Below, piece after piece: positions 11,293-55,539 of a DNA stretch of 64,000 nt. The DNA is from a virus. Where the stretch lies: positions 11,598 through 75,597 of the IMG/VR virus record IMGVR_UViG_3300030333_002885, one strand, 5' to 3'. The notes under the pieces are model-generated. The model had not been told where the DNA came from and made no database searches. It was given only the letters and a program-made list of their open reading frames with translations. The position numbers were made by a program, and so were the translations under genes. Position 1 is the first letter of the stretch. Each line of letters opens with the position of its first letter.

Positions 11293-12056
11293 CAAAGATC
11301 CTTGTTACTGGTCATAAGGGATTCATAGGCAGTTATGTCTTCAATCACCTTAGACATGATGCAGGTTATGGATACCTAGTTGATGGTATGGATTTCCCCG
11401 ATGATGTCGGGGATTTTCAGTCTGAGATTAGTATGTTTGAAAAACCATATGATTATGTCATACATCTCGCAGCATTTGCTAACATCAGAGGCAGTTTAGA
11501 TAACCCAGATGTATTCTGGGAGAATAATGTAGAGAAGTCTAAACCTATCTTTGAATATTGTAGGAGATATAATGTCAGACTACTCTATGCTAGTTCAGCA
11601 CAGGTAGAGGAGTGGTGGCAGAATCCTTATGGTATTACCAAGAAGGTTAATGAACTACAAGCACCACCTAATAGTGTAGGAATGAGGTTCCAGACTGTTT
11701 ATGGTGAGAACAGTAGGTCTGATATGTTATTCAGAATGCTACAGGATAAGACTGCTAAGTATATTACTAATCATAAGAGAGACTGGATCCATGTTAAGGA
11801 TGTTGCTAGAGCAATTTGTTACCTAATGTCTAGTACATATACTGGACACATAGATGTAGGAACAGGTGAGACTATAACAGTCAGAGAATTAGCAGAAGCA
11901 TTTGGTCAGGCAAATCTACCAGTCAAGGAGAACACACCAGGTGAGAGAGATGTCACATGTGCTGACACTACTGCCTTGCGTGAACTCGGTTGGTTTCCAA
12001 GGGAAAAAGTTTTAGACTGTATTCCTGAGGGAAAACCGAACTCTCGTTTCAAATAA
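11289..12056 (+). CDS. NAD-dependent nucleotide-sugar epimerase/dehydratase
   Basis: LVTGHKGFIG, HLAA, YASS, PYGITK, RDWIHV.D. Confidence 0.9.
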   Translation: MTKILVTGHKGFIGSYVFNHLRHDAGYGYLVDGMDFPDDVGDFQSEISMFEKPYDYVIHLAAFANIRGSLDNPDVFWENNVEKSKPIFEYCRRYNVRLLYASSAQVEEWWQNPYGITKKVNELQAPPNSVGMRFQTVYGENSRSDMLFRMLQDKTAKYITNHKRDWIHVKDVARAICYLMSSTYTGHIDVGTGETITVRELAEAFGQANLPVKENTPGERDVTCADTTALRELGWFPREKVLDCIPEGKPNSRFK

Positions 12057-44942: not shown

Positions 44943-47708
44943 ATGCCTAGCAATTATAAAACCGTCATCAATTTTAGAGATGGTATTCAGGTTGATACCG
45001 ATGACCTGATATCTAATAATGGTCTGGTGGGTATTGGTAGTACCATACCTAGGCAACAGTTAGATGTTCGTGGTAATGCAATAGTTGAAGATAATACATT
45101 TGTAAATAATCTGACTGTAACGGGAGTTCAGACTAATTACGGGGTCTTAAATGTAGGTACTGGATATTCGGTAGGAATCGGAACCACAGTTCCTGAGGCA
45201 GCATTTCAGGTTGGTATTGGTACTACTGGATTCACTGTTAGTGAATCTGGTGCTGTTGTTGCCCAGTCATTTACGGGTGATGGATCAGGATTAACGGGAT
45301 TACCAGCAGCACAATGGATTAATCCTGGTGCTGGTAATACGATATATGCACTCAAGGATGTTGGTATAGGTACTGAATTAACTAGAGGTGGTGCTGATTT
45401 TGGTGTAGGATATGAGATATACATGGATGCTGAGAGTGGCATTGGAACATTTGAAGGAATAAAAGCAAAGAATATAACTGCTGTTAATGTTAGTGGTCAG
45501 GGACAGGGTACTGTTGTTGGTGATGTTGGTACATTTTCTACTGTAACTGCAACAACGCAGATAGAAGCACCACAATTTATTGGTACAGTTACTAATGCTA
45601 CAAGATCAGTCGTAGCAGCAGGTTTGACTGATAGTCCTGATATTGATGTTAATTATATTACGGGTGTTGGTGGAACATTTACGGGTATCACTAGCTTTAG
45701 TACACTTCAGATTAGCGGTGGTATTGTTGCTAACGGTGGAATAATAACTGCAACAACATTTGCTGGTACTGCCTCAACTGCTGTTGGTGCTCAAACTGCA
45801 TATAGTCTACTAGGACAACCAGATATATTGGTTGATAGTGTGACAGTAGATGGTATTGCACCTTCTATTATTAAGGGTGTAGGTGTTAGTACTATTGGTC
45901 AAGATTTATTGGTAGGTGAGTTCCTAGGTGTTGGTGCAACAACATCAGCTTCAGGACAGGCAGCAGGATTTATTGGTACTGTTAGAGTATCTGATGGTGA
46001 TATTATCCTAGGTGGTAGTATTTCTATTGGTGGAAGTATTGTAGGTAATCTATCTCTTGGTGGAGATACTGATGTTAATACATTAAATGTTGGTGCTGGA
46101 TTATCTGTTGCTGGTATTACTTCATTCACTGGTACTGTCACTGGTGCAGGTGACATGTCATTCCAAGGAGATATATCTTGTGATGAATTAAATACAACAC
46201 AAGGAATGACCGTTGGTGGTGCATTTACTTGTGGTTCTGTAGTATCATCTGGTTCTGGTACATTCTCTGGTGGTGGAGTCGTAGCTAATGGTGGTCTTAC
46301 TGGTACTGGTGGTGGATTAGTTGTTGGTGGTGGTGCTACTCTAGGAGGAGATATTAGTCTTACTGCTGGTGGTGCTATAGGATTATCAGGAGTTAATCTT
46401 CCTGGTGCTGCTGTTACATGTGGTAAGATTGAATCTGTTGGTGGTCTTGTTGATTCATCTGGTGGTATTCAGGTTGCTGGTGGTGCTACTATTGGTGGTC
46501 CTCTTAAGGGTGCTACTGATATTGCAGGAACTGGGACATGTACTGTATCTGGTGGATTCTATGGTGCAGTAGTAGATGCTACTAATGGAAACTTTGCAGG
46601 TGTTGTAACTACAAATTCACTATCTGTTGGAGGTGACCTAGAGGTAAATGGCATTGGTACTATTGTTTTAGGATATACTAAACTTGATGGATTAACTGGT
46701 TTAACAACTGGTAATGCTTATATTGGATACGCTGGTGTCAGCACATTTGTTGATATTAATATGACAGAGGGTAGTACCTCTAAACTTAGAGCTAAGAATA
46801 TTTGCTGTGGTGATGGTGTATCTGGATACACTACTAGTCTTACTACAGGTTTAGCAGTAGTTAGTGGTGGAGAGATATGGGTAGATACTGAAGGTGCTAC
46901 AGGTGGTATTGGTATTGGATCTACCTCTGGACAGAGAACTGGTACTGACGCATTACATGTTGGATTAATCAGACAAGGTGGAACATTAGTCAATACTCAG
47001 TCAATATTTGAAGGTAGTGTTGGTATTGGAACCACATCAACTTTAAATGCTGGTAATAATGGTGGAACACTTGAGATCTATAAGAATACAGTGTTCTGGA
47101 ATAACCACACTGGTGTTGGTGGAACTATTGGTGTTGCTGGTACTACTACATTAAGAATTGGTATTAATAGTGGAGAACCAGGTGGTAGTCTTGATATGAG
47201 ATATGCTGGTGAGGCATTTATCTTACCAAGAAATTATACTCCTAGTGGTGGTGTAAACGACAACCCTGCCTATGTTGATGTCAATGATGCTGACTATGAA
47301 GGCAGTATGTGGTATGATGGTCATAACAAAGTATTCAGGGTCAGGATGGAAGGTCCTGGTGCTGTTGGATTAGCAACAGATCCTGGATTTGATTTCTTCC
47401 AAGAAAGAGGATGGAAAGGACAATTGATTAATCAACAAATATCAGGTAGTTTTGAAAGGTACAGGGATACTGGACCTGGAGGTGGTGGTGTATCACCTAC
47501 TAATCCACCACAATTCCCTGTAGGTTGGGGTACTGCTAACCAGTGCTATTATCAACCAACAAATCAACTTCAGATTTATGGATCAGATAGTATATGGAGA
47601 TCATTAGTAGGTAGTGCTACAACTGGAGTTGAATTTATTATTGATGGTACTACTGCTAAACTAAATGTAGCAGGAGTCGGATCAATTTCATTGGGTACAC
47701 TATCCTGA
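44943..47708 (+). CDS. Tail fibre protein
   Basis: VGIGST/VGIGT repeats, FTGDGSGLTG, Gly-rich beta repeats. Confidence 0.8.
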   Translation: MPSNYKTVINFRDGIQVDTDDLISNNGLVGIGSTIPRQQLDVRGNAIVEDNTFVNNLTVTGVQTNYGVLNVGTGYSVGIGTTVPEAAFQVGIGTTGFTVSESGAVVAQSFTGDGSGLTGLPAAQWINPGAGNTIYALKDVGIGTELTRGGADFGVGYEIYMDAESGIGTFEGIKAKNITAVNVSGQGQGTVVGDVGTFSTVTATTQIEAPQFIGTVTNATRSVVAAGLTDSPDIDVNYITGVGGTFTGITSFSTLQISGGIVANGGIITATTFAGTASTAVGAQTAYSLLGQPDILVDSVTVDGIAPSIIKGVGVSTIGQDLLVGEFLGVGATTSASGQAAGFIGTVRVSDGDIILGGSISIGGSIVGNLSLGGDTDVNTLNVGAGLSVAGITSFTGTVTGAGDMSFQGDISCDELNTTQGMTVGGAFTCGSVVSSGSGTFSGGGVVANGGLTGTGGGLVVGGGATLGGDISLTAGGAIGLSGVNLPGAAVTCGKIESVGGLVDSSGGIQVAGGATIGGPLKGATDIAGTGTCTVSGGFYGAVVDATNGNFAGVVTTNSLSVGGDLEVNGIGTIVLGYTKLDGLTGLTTGNAYIGYAGVSTFVDINMTEGSTSKLRAKNICCGDGVSGYTTSLTTGLAVVSGGEIWVDTEGATGGIGIGSTSGQRTGTDALHVGLIRQGGTLVNTQSIFEGSVGIGTTSTLNAGNNGGTLEIYKNTVFWNNHTGVGGTIGVAGTTTLRIGINSGEPGGSLDMRYAGEAFILPRNYTPSGGVNDNPAYVDVNDADYEGSMWYDGHNKVFRVRMEGPGAVGLATDPGFDFFQERGWKGQLINQQISGSFERYRDTGPGGGGVSPTNPPQFPVGWGTANQCYYQPTNQLQIYGSDSIWRSLVGSATTGVEFIIDGTTAKLNVAGVGSISLGTLS

Positions 47709-47719
47709 GGTAAGAGCGA

Positions 47720-49642
47720 ATGGCAGCTAATGATTGGTCAAATACTACTCAGTTATTGCTTACTGGTTCTTCTGGCACTCAAATATCCTTTGGTGATGTA
47801 AGAGCAGCAGTTGGTGATACTAGTAAACCTATCTCTGCATCAGAGATGTGGAGACAGACAGATCTTGATGCACCATATCAATTTGCATCATTACCTACAT
47901 CATCTGGTACTCCTCATGTACCTTATGTACTAGATTCTACTGAGAATGTTGGTGTACCTACTAGTGGTGCTATATCTCCTAATAATGTAAGAAATGTTAT
48001 TAAAGAATATGTCATTGAGCAAGCACCTAATACAGAAGAAACACAATTTGATGCTGGTACTCTTACAGGACCAACAACACCTACTGCTAGTGTAAACTGG
48101 AATTCAAATTTAAATAAAAATATAACAAAATATCTAAGGATTAGAGGGAGGATGGTTTCTCCTTCTGTTTCCACACCTGCTGTATCTATTGCTAGTTCTT
48201 CATCATCTAACTTAAAATTATATGTACATGACACACCTCAGGGTGATGGCATCTATGGTGCTGGTGGTGTAAAGAATCAAGCAGGTGGTAATGCTATTAG
48301 GATAACTAATCCTTCTGCACCTTCTACTCGTTATGTCTATGTTGAGTGTGAAGGAGCACAGTCTAGGATATGGGCAGGTGGTGGAGGAGGAAGAGATGGT
48401 GTTGATGGTGTAGATGGTGTTGATGGATCAGCATGGACTGGTAATGGTGTAGATGGTGTTGATGGGTCACCTGGAACTCCTGGATCACCTGGATCTGACG
48501 GAACTCCTGGAACTGATGGAACACCTGGAGGTAACGGATCTTCTGGATCTGGTGGTGGTAGTGGTAGTAATGGGTCACCTGGACAACCTGGATCACCTGG
48601 AAGTTATGGTACTCCTGCAATGCAGAGGACTACCCAGACATTTACTTATGCTTTCCAACAAACAGGCACAGGACAACAGGCAAATCCACAAGAAAGGAGA
48701 AGTAGACGAGGATGGTGGGGTCAAGGTAGGAGTAGATATACAGTATATTCACAGGTAACAGTAACAACTAGAACTGCTGTTCAACAATCTAATACATCAC
48801 AATATAAGGTTGCTTGCTTCGGTGGAGGACCAGGATCTGGTGGATCAGGAGGATCTGGAGGATCTGGTGGTGGCGGTGGCTCAGGTGGTGGCGGTGGATC
48901 AGGAGGATCTGGCGGTAGTGCTGGTGCTGGTGGAACTAAAGGATACGGTGGAGGTGGTGGTTCAGGTGGACAAGGTGGAAATAAAGGATACGGTGGATTC
49001 AATGGTGTTAAAGGTTATAAAGGTTATGCTGGATCAGGATCAGATGGTAGGGGATGGAATAATTTAACTGGAGCACTCTCCTCATCTGGAGGTACACCTG
49101 GAACTCCTGGAACTCCTGGAGGTAACGGAACACCTGGAACCCCTGGTACACCTGGAACTCCAGGTGGTGCTGGAACTCCTGGAACCTCAGGTACACCTGG
49201 AACGCCAGGTCAACCTGGAACACCTGGAGGTAGTGGTTCAGGAGGAGGTAGTGGAACGCCAGGAACTCCTGGATCTGCTGGAACTCCTGGAGGTAGTGGT
49301 GGATGTGGAGGTGCTACACCTGGCACACCTGGAACTCCTGGAACTCCTGGATCTGATGGAACACCTGGAGGTGGAGGAACACCTGGAACTCCTGGAGGCG
49401 ATGGCACACCTGGAACTCCTGGAACTGATGGAACACCTGGAACTCCTGGAGATGACGGTGACGATGGAACACCTGGAACTCCAGGTGGTGACGGACAACC
49501 TGGAACTCCTGGAACACCTGGTCAACCTGGAATTGCAGGTGGTGACTGGGGTATGCCTGGAGCAGAACCTGGTGGTAGAGCAGTTGCTGGATCACCATAC
49601 CAAGTAATACCTAACGGAGGTAGCATTAGAGTCGTCTATTAA
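47720..49642 (+). CDS. Gly-rich adhesin/fibre-tip protein with four Gly-X-Y runs
   Basis: IYGAGG..GGNAI..IWAGGGGG..GGRAV frame (T-even gp38-like) enclosing GTP/GSG triplet runs. Confidence 0.75.
   Translation: MAANDWSNTTQLLLTGSSGTQISFGDVRAAVGDTSKPISASEMWRQTDLDAPYQFASLPTSSGTPHVPYVLDSTENVGVPTSGAISPNNVRNVIKEYVIEQAPNTEETQFDAGTLTGPTTPTASVNWNSNLNKNITKYLRIRGRMVSPSVSTPAVSIASSSSSNLKLYVHDTPQGDGIYGAGGVKNQAGGNAIRITNPSAPSTRYVYVECEGAQSRIWAGGGGGRDGVDGVDGVDGSAWTGNGVDGVDGSPGTPGSPGSDGTPGTDGTPGGNGSSGSGGGSGSNGSPGQPGSPGSYGTPAMQRTTQTFTYAFQQTGTGQQANPQERRSRRGWWGQGRSRYTVYSQVTVTTRTAVQQSNTSQYKVACFGGGPGSGGSGGSGGSGGGGGSGGGGGSGGSGGSAGAGGTKGYGGGGGSGGQGGNKGYGGFNGVKGYKGYAGSGSDGRGWNNLTGALSSSGGTPGTPGTPGGNGTPGTPGTPGTPGGAGTPGTSGTPGTPGQPGTPGGSGSGGGSGTPGTPGSAGTPGGSGGCGGATPGTPGTPGTPGSDGTPGGGGTPGTPGGDGTPGTPGTDGTPGTPGDDGDDGTPGTPGGDGQPGTPGTPGQPGIAGGDWGMPGAEPGGRAVAGSPYQVIPNGGSIRVVY
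48389..49546 (+). repeat. 9-bp tandem-repeat tracts (GGAACWCCT) encoding Gly-X-Y
   Basis: Read directly in DNA and protein. Confidence 0.9.
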
Positions 49643-49650
49643 CTATTATT

Positions 49651-50253
49651 ATGTCAATTTATCCTATATTACCTCATCCTACATATGATGAGAATGATTT
49701 TGCAACTTGGGAAGGAGGTTTCACACCATCAGAGTGTGATGCTATTATCCGTTTAGGAGAGGAGCAAACATTAATTAACTCAACAGTTGGTGCTGGTCTT
49801 GTTGACCCATCCAAAGAAAATATTGCGATTAGAAAATCAAAGAATGGATGGATAGAATTAAATGATCGAAGTAAGTGGGTATATGATAGGATTGCGAATA
49901 TTTCTAGGTGTTTGAATGGATTAAATTGGAGATTTGAAATAAGTGGGTTTAATGAGCATTTACAATATACAAGGTATGATGCAGCAGATAAGGATTTCTA
50001 TGGGTGGCATACAGATGGATCTGTCAAAGGAGATGGACCACCTCGTAAATTATCACTAACAATACAATTATCCGACCCTAATGACTATGAGGGTGGAGAC
50101 TTTCAACTACATGGTACTAAATTATCTACAGTTGCTAAAGAGAGAGGGTTGACAGTATGTTTTCCTAGTTATACACTACATCAGGTTACTCCTGTAACTA
50201 AAGGAGTTAGAAAGAGTTTAGTCGTATGGTTGGTCGGTCCACCTTTTAAATAA
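49651..50253 (+). CDS. 2OG-Fe(II) oxygenase (PKHD/prolyl hydroxylase-like)
   Basis: WHTD, RKLSLTIQLSDP.DYEGG, FPSY.LH.VTPVTKG.R.SLV.W. Confidence 0.9.
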   Translation: MSIYPILPHPTYDENDFATWEGGFTPSECDAIIRLGEEQTLINSTVGAGLVDPSKENIAIRKSKNGWIELNDRSKWVYDRIANISRCLNGLNWRFEISGFNEHLQYTRYDAADKDFYGWHTDGSVKGDGPPRKLSLTIQLSDPNDYEGGDFQLHGTKLSTVAKERGLTVCFPSYTLHQVTPVTKGVRKSLVVWLVGPPFK

Positions 50254-50254
50254 T

Positions 50255-50806
50255 ATGAATCCACGAATTGATCCCCATTGTATAGCTAATGCTTTTAGCA
50301 ATTCAGAGTGCGAAAGTATTATTGAACTAGGTGAATCTATAGGACTTAAAGCATCAGGAATTGATGTAAATTCATTAAATCCTATTAGAAAGTCATGGAA
50401 TTCATTCATAAATTTTGATAAAGAAGTTGAGTGGATTTACAACCGAGTAGGTGACATTGCTAGAGAAATTAACCATAAATGGTATCATTTTGAAGCAGAT
50501 GGATTTGAGAATATACAATATATTAAATATGAAAGTGATGGATGTCATTATAATTGGCATGTAGATAATGACCTTAGTGATAATGCACCTTCAAGAAAGA
50601 TTGGATTCTCGTTACAACTTAGTGACTCAGATGAGTACGAAGGTGGTAACTTAGAAATACATCATACGGAATTGTTTAATGATTTACCTAGAGAAAAAGG
50701 AACTATGATCGTTTTTCCTAGTTTTTGTCTACATAGAATTACACCTGTCACTCGTGGTGTTCGTAGATCTATGGTAGCACACCTAGCAGGTAAACCATTC
50801 AGATGA
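50255..50806 (+). CDS. 2OG-Fe(II) oxygenase, tandem paralog
   Basis: WHVD, RKI...QLSD..EYEGG, FPS...HR.TPVTRG.R. Confidence 0.9.
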   Translation: MNPRIDPHCIANAFSNSECESIIELGESIGLKASGIDVNSLNPIRKSWNSFINFDKEVEWIYNRVGDIAREINHKWYHFEADGFENIQYIKYESDGCHYNWHVDNDLSDNAPSRKIGFSLQLSDSDEYEGGNLEIHHTELFNDLPREKGTMIVFPSFCLHRITPVTRGVRRSMVAHLAGKPFR

Positions 50807-52814: not shown

Positions 52815-54206
52815 ATGGGAAGAAAGATTGCTGTTGTTGGTGCGAGTGCTGCTGGATTTGTTCAGTTAGCATCATTATCATTGAAGAGATATGAATTTTA
52901 TAATGAATATAAAGATGATGAATATGTATTGATACATGATCCTGATAAAGTATTACCAGTTATGTTATCTGGTACTAATCCAGCATTTTTTGATGAGTTA
53001 TGTTTAGCAACTAATATTAATAGAAGATGGTTACAAAAATATGCTGATGCTACTGATTGTCATGGTTATAAGTTTAGTGGATGGGGTAATAGGAGAGATA
53101 AGAACTTTCAATTAACATTTAAATCACAAATTGGTGCTCATTTAGATATTGAGAAGTTTAGAGCAGCAATGTTAGAAGATGGTGGAAAATCATTTGGTAG
53201 TAATGTTAGTATAATTGAAGAGAAAATAGATTCATTTCAAGATAATGCTAATGGTTGTAAGATTAATGGTGTAGATTATGATTATGTTATAGATTGTACT
53301 GAGATTGAACCATTAAAAGACATGTATGGTTATGGTACACCTAGTTTGACTAGTGTTAATACATGTTTAGTATTAGAGAAACCAGAAGCAGGTCATTGGG
53401 ATTATACCATAGAATATGCTGCTAAGTATGGTAGAATAACAGGTATTCCATTACAAAGTAGACAATTATGGATATATTTTTATGATAGCACAGAAGTATC
53501 TAAAGATGATATACTTGAGGATATGCAAACAGCATTTCCTGATGATGATATTACACAATGGAAACAAATAGGTGATGTAGAGGGTCATAGTTTTAGATGG
53601 ACACCTAAAGTATCTAATTATTGTGTATGTCCTACTACTGGTAGATATATTAGAAATGGTTCTGCATTAATTAATATTGAACCATTAACAGGATGTCATA
53701 ATGAATGTGTACAAGTTATGTGTGAGTCTATATCATTACTAACTCATACAGTAGCACCTAGAGAGATAGTTCATATTAAACAACAAATACAAGACACATA
53801 TTATGAACTATTAGCATATGATTATCAAGCACATTTATCATTCATGTATCATTGTGGTTCAAGATATGATACTGATTTTTGGATTAATGCTAAGAAATAT
53901 GCACGAGAGGTATTAAATGATAAAAGATATTTACATCCAGCATATTTTCCTGGAAAACCTTGGATAGATAATATATTATCTGATAAATGGGATGATGAGG
54001 AATATAGGAGATTAATTCGTGCAGATACTGAGTTACAGGATATAGGTGGTAGAAATAGAGTAGTTCCACTTGTAATAATGAATGATTATGCAATGTTTTG
54101 TGAACTTGCTATTGGATTAGGTGTTAGTTATGCTGATAGATTTAAGGTATTAGATATGTGTGATCCACCTGAAGATTATGGTACTATAGGTTATGAATAC
54201 TTCTAA
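52815..54206 (+). CDS. Tryptophan-halogenase-like flavoprotein, degenerate motifs
   Basis: IAVVGASAAG, F.GWG, IDCT, GIPLQSR, RNG.A...IEPL, GS.YDT.FW. Confidence 0.75.
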   Translation: MGRKIAVVGASAAGFVQLASLSLKRYEFYNEYKDDEYVLIHDPDKVLPVMLSGTNPAFFDELCLATNINRRWLQKYADATDCHGYKFSGWGNRRDKNFQLTFKSQIGAHLDIEKFRAAMLEDGGKSFGSNVSIIEEKIDSFQDNANGCKINGVDYDYVIDCTEIEPLKDMYGYGTPSLTSVNTCLVLEKPEAGHWDYTIEYAAKYGRITGIPLQSRQLWIYFYDSTEVSKDDILEDMQTAFPDDDITQWKQIGDVEGHSFRWTPKVSNYCVCPTTGRYIRNGSALINIEPLTGCHNECVQVMCESISLLTHTVAPREIVHIKQQIQDTYYELLAYDYQAHLSFMYHCGSRYDTDFWINAKKYAREVLNDKRYLHPAYFPGKPWIDNILSDKWDDEEYRRLIRADTELQDIGGRNRVVPLVIMNDYAMFCELAIGLGVSYADRFKVLDMCDPPEDYGTIGYEYF

Positions 54207-55539
54207 GAGAATTGCTGTTGTTGGTGCAGGTGTTGTTGGTGTTAATACATTACTAAGGTTAATTGATGAAAGATATCCTGGAGTTCATCTTACATGGATA
54301 TATGATTCAAAAATACCTATATTTGGTATTGGTGAATCAACTACACCAGATTTACCATCACAAATAGCACATAGTACAAATATAGTTAATCCTCATGTAA
54401 AGAAATACTTTGATGGTACTATTAAATTTGGTAATAAATTTATTGGATGGGGTAAGAAACATAATTTTATAAGATGGTTAGATATGCACTCTGTAGGTAT
54501 CCATTTTGATACTAAAGAGTTTACAAAATTCTTTATAGAATACTTACCATCTCATACACCAGAGTTAGATTTAATAGATGAAACTATTACACAATTAAAC
54601 TTTACATCTGATTCAGTATATGTTAATACTCATAAGTTTGATTTTGTTATAGATTGTACTGGTGGTAAATCATTAATAGATCACGATCAATTTTTTGATT
54701 CAACATTTGTATCAGTTAATACTGCACTAGCATTGAGATTACCTGAACCTGCTGATTGGGGTGTGACTATAACTTATGCCCATAGAAATGGGTGGATGTT
54801 TGGTATACCATTACAATCTAGGAGAACATTTGGATACTTATATAATGATAATGTAACAACTGAAGAGGAAGCATTAAAAGATTTTAGAACTATTATACCT
54901 GAAGCATTAGGTTATCCATATAAGAAGTTTTCATGGAAACCACAATTATCGAGGTATGTATTACATCATAGTGGAAGATATGCAAGAAATGGTAATGCTG
55001 TTGGATTTCTTGATCCATTAGAGTCATTAGCAGGATATTATTATGATAGAATATCTAACGAAGTATGTGCATTTGCATTAGGTAATAATCCTAATGATAT
55101 TGATACTATTAATAAAGTTAATGACTGGTATTATACAACAGTTATTGATGACTGGTATAAGAATATGGCGTGGATGTATCATTTTGGATCAAAATATGAT
55201 TCACTATTCTGGAGAAATATGGTAGCAGATTCAAGAGATCTTCTTAATAATAAAGAGATCAATGATTTTAATATATTAAATAAGGATCAGAATTTTACTG
55301 AAGATCTATTTAATATTATTGGTGATGATCCTCATTTAGTGAGAGATTTTATACTTAATAGAGTACATGATTATATCGGACATAATTTACATAATTTTGC
55401 TGGTAATTATAGAGATTTTGTTGAGTGGTCTTATGGTATGGGTGCTGACTATGCCCATAAGTTTCCATTATTAGTTCCACCTATAGATCTTAATGAGGAA
55501 TGGGGTGAATTGTCATTCGACACTAGGTCACTTAAATAA
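54193..55539 (+). CDS. Tryptophan-halogenase-like flavoprotein (PrnA family)
   Basis: VVGAGVVG, GIGEST, GTIKFG..F.GW, IDCTG, GWMFGIPL, GNA.GFLDPLES. Confidence 0.85.
   Translation: MNTSKRIAVVGAGVVGVNTLLRLIDERYPGVHLTWIYDSKIPIFGIGESTTPDLPSQIAHSTNIVNPHVKKYFDGTIKFGNKFIGWGKKHNFIRWLDMHSVGIHFDTKEFTKFFIEYLPSHTPELDLIDETITQLNFTSDSVYVNTHKFDFVIDCTGGKSLIDHDQFFDSTFVSVNTALALRLPEPADWGVTITYAHRNGWMFGIPLQSRRTFGYLYNDNVTTEEEALKDFRTIIPEALGYPYKKFSWKPQLSRYVLHHSGRYARNGNAVGFLDPLESLAGYYYDRISNEVCAFALGNNPNDIDTINKVNDWYYTTVIDDWYKNMAWMYHFGSKYDSLFWRNMVADSRDLLNNKEINDFNILNKDQNFTEDLFNIIGDDPHLVRDFILNRVHDYIGHNLHNFAGNYRDFVEWSYGMGADYAHKFPLLVPPIDLNEEWGELSFDTRSLK

Follow-up and report, generated by a model that had tools for sequence, protein, structure and literature searches.

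We analyzed a stretch of 64,000 nucleotides (the window; positions 11,598 to 75,597 of IMG/VR virus record IMGVR_UViG_3300030333_002885), in which one gene encodes a 640-residue protein with four long Gly-X-Y runs. In our interpretation, it is a gp38-type adhesin at the tip of a tail fibre, with glycine-rich strands that have been elongated into four arms. Its relatives comprise long forms, like the protein itself, and short forms, in which the same runs are brief. The parts of the gene are listed below; structural statements refer to AlphaFold2 (AF2) models, with confidence expressed as the predicted local distance difference test (pLDDT).

47720..49642, + strand: whole gene; predicted tail-fibre tip adhesin of 640 residues, gp38-type, in which four Gly-X-Y arms are elongated (open reading frame, AF2 model, gp38 structure matches, homologs)
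47720..48376, + strand: N-terminal domain (residues 1-219), attachment and beta-helix part with the first glycine-rich gp38-like base motifs (GIYGAGG, QAGGNA)
48377..48616, + strand: arm 1 (220-299), base to tip; GGGGG, acidic GVD/GSP/GTP triplets and one G-SAWT-G break
48617..48820, + strand: tip insert (300-367), Gln/Thr-rich and strongly basic, predicted long beta-hairpin (DSSP of the AF2 model, low confidence)
48695..48736, + strand: Arg/Trp apex motif RRSRRGWWGQGRSR (326-339), in the middle of the insert
48815..48817, + strand: Cys366, at the end of the insert, immediately before arm 2
48821..49045, + strand: arm 2 (368-442), tip to base; rich in GGS/GGG (60% Gly, 1% Pro), with Lys, Tyr and Phe triplets near the base
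49046..49090, + strand: base turn GRGWNNLTGALSSSG (443-457), a conserved anchor (GRGYNN in short-form relatives; pLDDT >90)
49091..49303, + strand: arm 3 (458-528), base to tip; GTP-rich triplets and a glycine-dense patch
49304..49306, + strand: Cys529, in the short GGCGGA turn joining arms 3 and 4
49307..49546, + strand: arm 4 (530-609), tip to base; GTP triplets, GDD near the base and the conserved terminal GGDWG anchor
49547..49642, + strand: C-terminal 31 residues WGMPGAEPGGRAVAG...GGSIRVVY, predicted to close the gp38-like base, and stop codon

Counted strictly in frame, run 1 covers residues 221-238 (6 triplets) and, beyond the G-SAWT-G break, 243-299 (19 triplets), while runs 2, 3 and 4 cover residues 369-440 (24 triplets), 458-532 (25) and 535-609 (25). 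Runs of 24-25 perfect triplets are far above chance expectation. The only Pfam match of the product is Collagen, at 35.7 bits against a cut-off of 27.2. The four runs of 24-26 triplets reported in an initial annotation of this DNA are present by this count, and the interval assigned to them, 48389-49546, is correct and spans residues 224-609. Both turns are as it described, GRGWNNL after run 2 and GGCGGA between runs 3 and 4, and the two cysteines of the repeat region, Cys366 (KVAC-F) and Cys529, are the only ones outside the N-terminal domain. The non-repeat insert placed after run 1 also exists, with the quoted Arg/Trp motif at its center, but it comprises 68 residues (300-367) rather than merely 17. 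The proposed charge pattern is real: arms 1 and 4 contain 10% Asp+Glu and 0-1% Lys+Arg, and arm 2 contains 5% Lys+Arg, with Tyr and Phe near the base. Glycine-dense patches near the tip, announced for all four arms, are found roughly 5-10 triplets from it in arms 1, 3 and 4, whereas arm 2 is glycine-dense across its entire distal half.

A gp38-like base

The AF2 model was built from an alignment of 78 sequences and has high confidence in the base (residues 1-240, 425-480 and 590-640, pLDDT mostly >85). Within it, the N-terminal domain (mostly >85) aligns to residues 2-157 of phage S16 gp38, and the first ~20 residues of arm 1 (>80) lie within the base core. The last ~20 residues of arm 2 (73-94) and of arm 4 (88-96) are modelled confidently as well, as are the C-terminal 31 residues (78-96), which are conserved in long and short forms.

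Compared with known structures, this model matches S16 gp38 (6f45_D) with a Z score of 14.0 (root-mean-square deviation, rmsd, 5.6 Å; 216 of 248 residues; 22% identity) and PP01 gp38 with a Z score of 13.2, the next chain reaching 3.6. The model of L019, the homolog with the shortest long form, gave 15.5 with 6f45_D (rmsd 5.4 Å, 229 of 248 residues) and 14.0 with PP01 gp38 (9v85_C), followed by a next match at 7.4, in a search of 48,161 chains that was independent of Foldseek. Foldseek alone ranked both gp38 entries first, with E values of only 0.039 and 0.13, so that re-examination with VIA-align and the wide search were needed. At the profile level, hhalign aligned the family with S16 gp38 over 117 columns that include DIYGxGG...GGGGG (E 2.6e-4, probability 42%); the matched segment in the 640-residue protein is GIYGAGG...IWAGGGGG. 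Furthermore, homologs found via the N-terminal domain carry precomputed PF05268 (GP38) labels, and the nearest ESM-Atlas clusters are Gp38 clusters, 90% PF05268. These matches, with Z scores far above those of the next chains, bear out the earlier suggestion that the flanks of the repeats form a gp38 frame.

Other traits of gp38 adhesins recur here. The predicted models contain an N-terminal attachment part, a beta-helix and a polyglycine II (PGII) sandwich; conserved glycine-rich motifs are separated by distal variable segments, the anchors being kept from short to long forms; and the gene lies directly downstream of the putative distal long-tail-fibre gene, in the window as well as in 26 related loci. 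Since the base model matches gp38, each arm must leave and re-enter a single-chain PGII core.

Lock-step lengths of the four arms

A profile search of 1.84 billion representatives yielded 503 family members at E <= 0.001, most of them short forms of 350-420 residues. In the short forms (about 375 residues) all four glycine runs have just 4-7 triplets. Short and long forms share the same topology and the anchors I[WY][AG]GGGGG, G[RQ]G[WY][ND], the last-turn cysteine, GG[DN]WG and the GG..GRA[VI] tail. The N-terminal domain is 61-79% identical among long-form homologs and 30-39% identical to that of short forms. No arms of intermediate length (8-14 triplets) were found among the 150 best family representatives, and the long form constitutes one discrete clade. 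One cultured phage, Synechococcus phage S-SRM01, has a family member, the short-form ORF53, annotated as 'adhesin tip complex' on the basis of HHpred (3.9e-7; PMC8557907). A set of 50,697 phage records, in which near relatives may be masked, contained no match to the region by megablast or to the N-terminal domain by tblastn.

To compare arm lengths, we took the conserved anchors, rather than the repeats, as arm boundaries. In a first set of 25 distinct long-form proteins (26 IMG/VR loci and P0005), the length of each of the four arms varied over a span of about 34 residues, with pairwise correlations of 0.96-0.99. An independent scan of JGI/ENA metagenome contigs enlarged the set to 45 distinct long-form proteins in 18 length classes, to which the following figures refer.

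Arm 1: 55-89 residues
Arm 2: 48-81 residues
Arm 3 with base linker: 59-92 residues
Arm 4: 51-84 residues

Pairwise correlations between arm lengths are 0.90-0.98 in this larger set. The centred standard deviation within proteins is 1.6, compared with 9.0 (minimum 5.0) in shuffles, and none of 100,000 column shuffles gave a value as low. The length of the insert (59-75 residues) is uncorrelated with that of the arms (r -0.15 to 0.25). Consecutive classes shift by equal whole triplets per arm (55/48/59/51, 58/51/62/54, 64/57/68/60, 68/60/71/63 for arms 1 to 4), and all lengths of arms 2 and 4 are multiples of 3.

A tree computed from the non-arm parts only implies at least 8-9 length changes for each arm, all of them shared with the other arms. 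Long and short length classes are interleaved on this tree: sister groups of classes 58/51/62/54, 64/57/68/60 and 85/78/89/81 occur inside one supported clade. The interleaving and the repeated joint changes show that the length signal does not reflect a single inherited event. Covariation of the run lengths across homologs, the check that the initial annotation had proposed, was therefore observed, with joint change at least 8 times on the tree.

The base anchors impose an out-back-out-back path on the chain. Like known PGII bundles, the protein has a three-residue glycine periodicity in all strands and length-matched antiparallel neighbours joined by turns, the latter deduced from topology and covariation, not from coordinates. 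Within the limits of predicted structure and covariation, our data demonstrate the topology, the strict triplet periodicity and the lock-step length changes.

The arm DNA is built of 9-bp units, and the predictor gives low confidence to much of the arms; both would be expected if the arms were disordered low-complexity expansions arising from repeat instability, their length having no role. We hold this to be highly improbable. At least eight lock-step changes of four compositionally different arms are incompatible with independent repeat instability, the DNA repeats are imperfect (61-70% matches), and contigs of different studies and years lack length variants: over 48085-49642 (1558 bases), those from runs of 2015 and 2023 show 5 and 0 substitutions, respectively, and 0 gaps. 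No arm length variant was seen in the contigs of four runs, although rare variants may escape contigs; small indels at 48880-48882 stem from short unrelated GGS-type contigs. The idea that length is tunable through 9-bp slippage is thus only partly sustained, as the classes do differ by whole triplets but the repeats are imperfect and the separate studies gave no variants. We favor length tuning on evolutionary time, coordinated over four arms; a fast slippage switch is not supported. The genotype is widespread and stable. The gene (47720-49642) is seen at a word share of 0.5-1.0 in marine metagenome runs from at least eight studies dated 2014-2025.

Arm packing and the tip

We propose that the protein is a single-chain, gp38-type adhesin at the tail-fibre tip, in which four strands of the PGII core are stretched together into a thin out-back-out-back rod with an Arg/Trp tip. 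We assign this reading a probability of roughly 0.6. The N-terminal ~220 and the last ~30 residues would form the gp38-like base, with its attachment part, small beta-helix and PGII core, and four core strands extend outward from it as long Gly-X-Y arms. In this topology, arm 1 runs out to the 68-residue insert at its far end and arm 2 back to the GRGWNN base turn; arm 3 then runs out to the short cysteine turn, which reverses the chain, and arm 4 back to GGDWG. Packed alongside one another, the arms may build a single thin rod from one chain, its strands extended and left-handed, of the PGII or polyproline II (PPII) type; arm 2, the richest in glycine, would probably be the most buried. PGII rises by 3.1 Å per residue (10.1101/2023.11.25.568672). 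The arms would measure about 23-25 nm, of which about 15-17 nm would lie beyond the 5-7 triplets already buried in short forms.

At the far end of the rod, Cys366 and Cys529 may staple the two hairpin tips together. The cysteine preceding arm 2 and that of the 3/4 turn are both present in 37 of the 45 long-form proteins and both absent in the other 8; neither is ever found alone, in agreement with the pairing postulated from their positions. Some relatives have a second cysteine pair, symmetric about the Arg/Trp apex. The turn between arms 3 and 4 is 2-8 residues long, and isolated DSSP bridges between these arms are symmetric about its cysteine, both in the model of this protein (519/539 and 522/536, about 529) and in that of L019 (445/459 and 424/480, about 452).

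The insert is strongly basic (9 Arg+Lys versus 1 Asp+Glu) and its predicted hairpin, with strands 302-324 and 342-364 (DSSP, low confidence), would extend the rod. A GWW/EWW/GWP motif, located in the loop of this hairpin, is central to the insert in 44 of the 45 proteins, with 26-38 residues before it and 29-34 after. The Arg/Trp apex RRSRRGWWGQGRSR might contact an anionic component of the host surface. Relatives carry whole inserted domains exactly at both predicted tips, the insert and the 3/4 turn being the variable sites; it may therefore be at the two predicted tips that new binding modules are taken up in this family.

Two further observations concern family representatives. In the short-form relatives P0021, P0092 and P0032, the turn that joins runs 3 and 4 is the exact insertion site of a beta-rich domain of ~130 residues. 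In P0121 (586 residues), the first glycine run is followed by two repeats of ~150 residues, each starting with Cys-Pro-Asp-Pro and ending in ...SHNL, with flanking YYPPP repeats; by eye, these are reminiscent of Hint/intein-like domains.

The composition of the arms bears on how they may pack. In the homologs, arm 2 has 55-69% Gly and 0-6% Pro, and arms 1, 3 and 4 have 34-52% Gly and 5-24% Pro; this arm-specific composition, GGX-like in arm 2 and G-X-Pro-like in the others, is conserved in all of them. We also co-folded the distal parts of the two hairpins (residues 241-424 with 476-590), omitting the gp38-like base. The pair scored 0.36 (best control, 0.00), which was graded as weak support. 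Among 80 solved complexes, 58 attained the mark on which this grading relies, as did 2 of 110 mismatched pairs; scores at or below 0.60 account for only 7 of those 80 complexes, and for both passing mismatches. The co-folding runs share at least 83% of contacts, with partner pLDDT of at least 73, and each distal hairpin reaches a pLDDT of about 82 when folded with the other, as opposed to 45-52 with unrelated partners. Cross-correlation of glycine density between arms gave peaks of r 0.29-0.49 at shifts broadly matching the length offsets; flipped controls gave r 0.23-0.43, and we do not rely on this signal.

Several points weigh against a PGII rod on a gp38 base. The distal two thirds of the arms have a pLDDT of only 35-50 in this protein and 36-67 in L019, and their side-by-side packing is a feature that we infer. 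Strands of known PGII bundles are 4-13 residues long (table in PMC13243192), and a PGII strand of 75 residues is without known precedent. Arms 1, 3 and 4 have one glycine per triplet and proline before glycine, which is the pattern of collagen and not the GGX of PGII lattices; the Pfam Collagen match exceeds its cut-off, neighbouring genes of the prolyl 4-hydroxylase (P4H) type fit collagen biology, and three chains folding back together would need equal arms too. The joint loss of the cysteines is one evolutionary event (8 proteins, one clade). One exception to the lock-step lengths exists: L040 (120-2003) lacks three GGS triplets in arm 2 alone, relative to the otherwise near-identical L039 (2601-4511). 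It comes from a 2.5-kb short-read contig, and the gap may represent either an assembly collapse or a natural slippage variant. Lastly, direct Pfam hmmscan of this protein and seven homologs gave no PF05268 match at E <= 10, and PDB sequences yielded no match to the short-form P0006 by phmmer and, with the family profile in hmmsearch, no gp38 chain but only five chance-level matches (E 0.035-1.3). The relationship to gp38 is therefore remote in sequence, though clear in predicted fold.

A serious, if somewhat unlikely, alternative is that the arms are paired and length-matched but do not build a rigid four-strand PGII lattice, forming instead, for example, two separate two-stranded ribbons, or flexible tethers that the disulfide and the insert tie together at the tip. 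Equal length would then be needed merely to bring tips and bases together. The low confidence of the distal arms, the weak co-folding support, the weak register signal in glycine density and the short strands of the PGII bundles mentioned above all agree with such looser pairing. On the other hand, strict glycine at every third residue over 24-25 triplets and whole-triplet indels argue for periodic packing, the arm-specific composition is conserved in all homologs, and the distal hairpins are modelled with a pLDDT of about 82, up from 45-52, only in each other's presence.

We may also hypothesize a collagen-type homotrimer, in which three chains wind each of their corresponding runs into a parallel triple helix, the successive segments being collinear or folded back on one another, like other collagen-like fibres of phages. 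The runs of 19-25 triplets are indeed long and unbroken, as in collagen, and X/Y positions are rich in imino acids in arms 1, 3 and 4 (5-24% Pro), as reflected in the Pfam Collagen score. Furthermore, every long-form locus has P4H-like oxygenase genes directly downstream, adhesin-bearing tail fibres are trimeric, and a trimeric fold-back would also require equal arms. Nevertheless, all four run ends are confidently modelled inside a single-chain gp38-like core, so that a collinear collagen arrangement is topologically excluded, and gp38 adhesins are described as monomeric (PMC12032242). Arm 2, at 55-69% Gly and almost free of proline, is a poor triple-helix sequence, yet it is length-matched to the others; the 3/4 turn has merely 2-8 residues, and no trimerisation domain was found by Pfam or PHROGs. 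We thus consider the collagen homotrimer unlikely.

Genome context and comparison with known systems

The IMG/VR record is 75.6 kb long and estimated to be 34% complete. T4-like tail genes in the window encode a baseplate hub/lysozyme, a 1750-residue tail fibre (phrog_529) and a 921-residue tail protein (phrog_3269). The gp5-like protein is 36% identical to that of Synechococcus phage S-SKS1 and 31% to those of Prochlorococcus phages P-SSM2/P-SSM5; these low identities suggest an uncultured marine T4-like phage, distantly related to cyanomyoviruses. The genes adjoining the adhesin are as follows.

44943..47708, + strand: 921-residue tail protein (phrog_3269), directly upstream of the adhesin in 26 loci
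49651-50253 and 50255-50806, + strand: two P4H/PKHD-type 2-oxoglutarate (2OG)-Fe(II) oxygenase genes (PF13640), starting 9 nt past the adhesin stop codon

The order fibre (1750 residues), tail protein (921 residues), adhesin is kept in the 26 loci. Judging from this gene order, the adhesin is probably mounted on the 921-residue protein as the distal fibre subunit. If the arrangement resembles that of S16 gp38, a single adhesin monomer would cap a trimeric fibre, for which the 921-residue product is the obvious candidate. This product is very rich in Gly, Thr and Val (GxGT-type repeats), has no Pfam match and is 27-75% identical among related loci.

The nearest PDB entries of the two oxygenases are PKHD hydroxylases and the PBCV-1 prolyl 4-hydroxylase. 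At least one copy lies downstream of the adhesin in 26 of 26 long-form loci, and none was found near the adhesin at four short-form loci or adjoining the short form of S-SRM01. Because all long forms belong to one syntenic clade, this association counts as a single observation. Proline before glycine, as in arms 1, 3 and 4, is the P4H consensus. A role of the neighbouring oxygenases as modifiers that hydroxylate the prolines of X-Pro-Gly triplets is putative and speculative.

Halogenase genes also occur in the vicinity. A pair of Trp-halogenase-like genes is located 3 kb downstream (52815-55539; 4508-5965 in L032) and is syntenic in related loci, and S-SRM01 has a flavin-dependent halogenase directly upstream of its short-form adhesin. 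The Trp-rich adhesin tips might conceivably be halogenated.

The PGII sandwich of gp38 is already known, and the cyanophage short form is already annotated as such. A limited literature search returned no publication describing elongated, length-locked gp38 arms. Taken as a whole, the system may represent a new fibre design: a four-strand PGII rod made from a single polypeptide of collagen-like sequence, disulfide-stapled, possibly prolyl-hydroxylated by phage enzymes, with a length (here about 15-27 triplets) set by equal triplet changes in all four strands, which would push an Arg/Trp probe through the layers of the host surface. We give even odds to this complete picture. If the rod is real, PGII bundles extend from strands of 4-13 residues to strands of 50-90, and there is a second, non-collagen route to a thin stiff Gly-X-Y fibre, single-chain and antiparallel, whose length can be read from the gene. 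The label 'collagen triple helix repeat' may then be wrong in kind for many phage genes. For phage biology, the arms connect the reach of an adhesin with the surface architecture of its host, in a testable way and for abundant marine phages; for protein design, they offer a natural length-programmable PGII scaffold.

The closest known systems are the gp38 adhesins of T2/T6/S16/PP01-type Straboviridae (PF05268; PDB 6F45, 9V85). The predicted base fold resembles theirs over nearly the whole gp38 chain, glycine-rich motifs alternate in both with variable segments pointing off the fibre, DIYGxGG...GGGGG is common to both, and the gene directly follows the distal fibre genes. However, gp38 has about 250 residues and ten PGII helices of 6-9 residues, whereas here we find four Gly-X-Y strands of 48-89 residues with co-changing lengths, a distal basic insert of 59-75 residues (a predicted beta-hairpin) and a cysteine pair. 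The short-form gp38-like proteins of marine and freshwater cyanophages (about 350-420 residues) belong to the same family, with the same four anchors and topology. They differ from the long forms in their runs of 4-7 triplets, in a tip insert rich in Cys instead of Arg and Trp, and in having no adjoining oxygenase gene at the loci examined.

PGII/PPII bundles such as the snow-flea antifreeze protein and the glycine-rich domain of ALK/LTK likewise pack antiparallel glycine-periodic strands of a single chain, joined by short turns (10.1101/2023.11.25.568672). In these bundles, known strands have 4-13 residues, mostly of GGX type, whereas those proposed here would exceed them about 5-7 times in length, with G-X-Pro in three of the four. 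Collagen-like proteins of bacteria and phages (PF01391; Scl, BclA and prophage tail-fibre repeats) share the long unbroken Gly-X-Y repeats with proline and a Pfam Collagen score above threshold. They are, however, parallel homotrimers with a trimerisation domain and freely varying repeat numbers, in contrast to the four length-locked runs, one of them nearly free of proline, that are found here inside a predicted monomeric adhesin fold.

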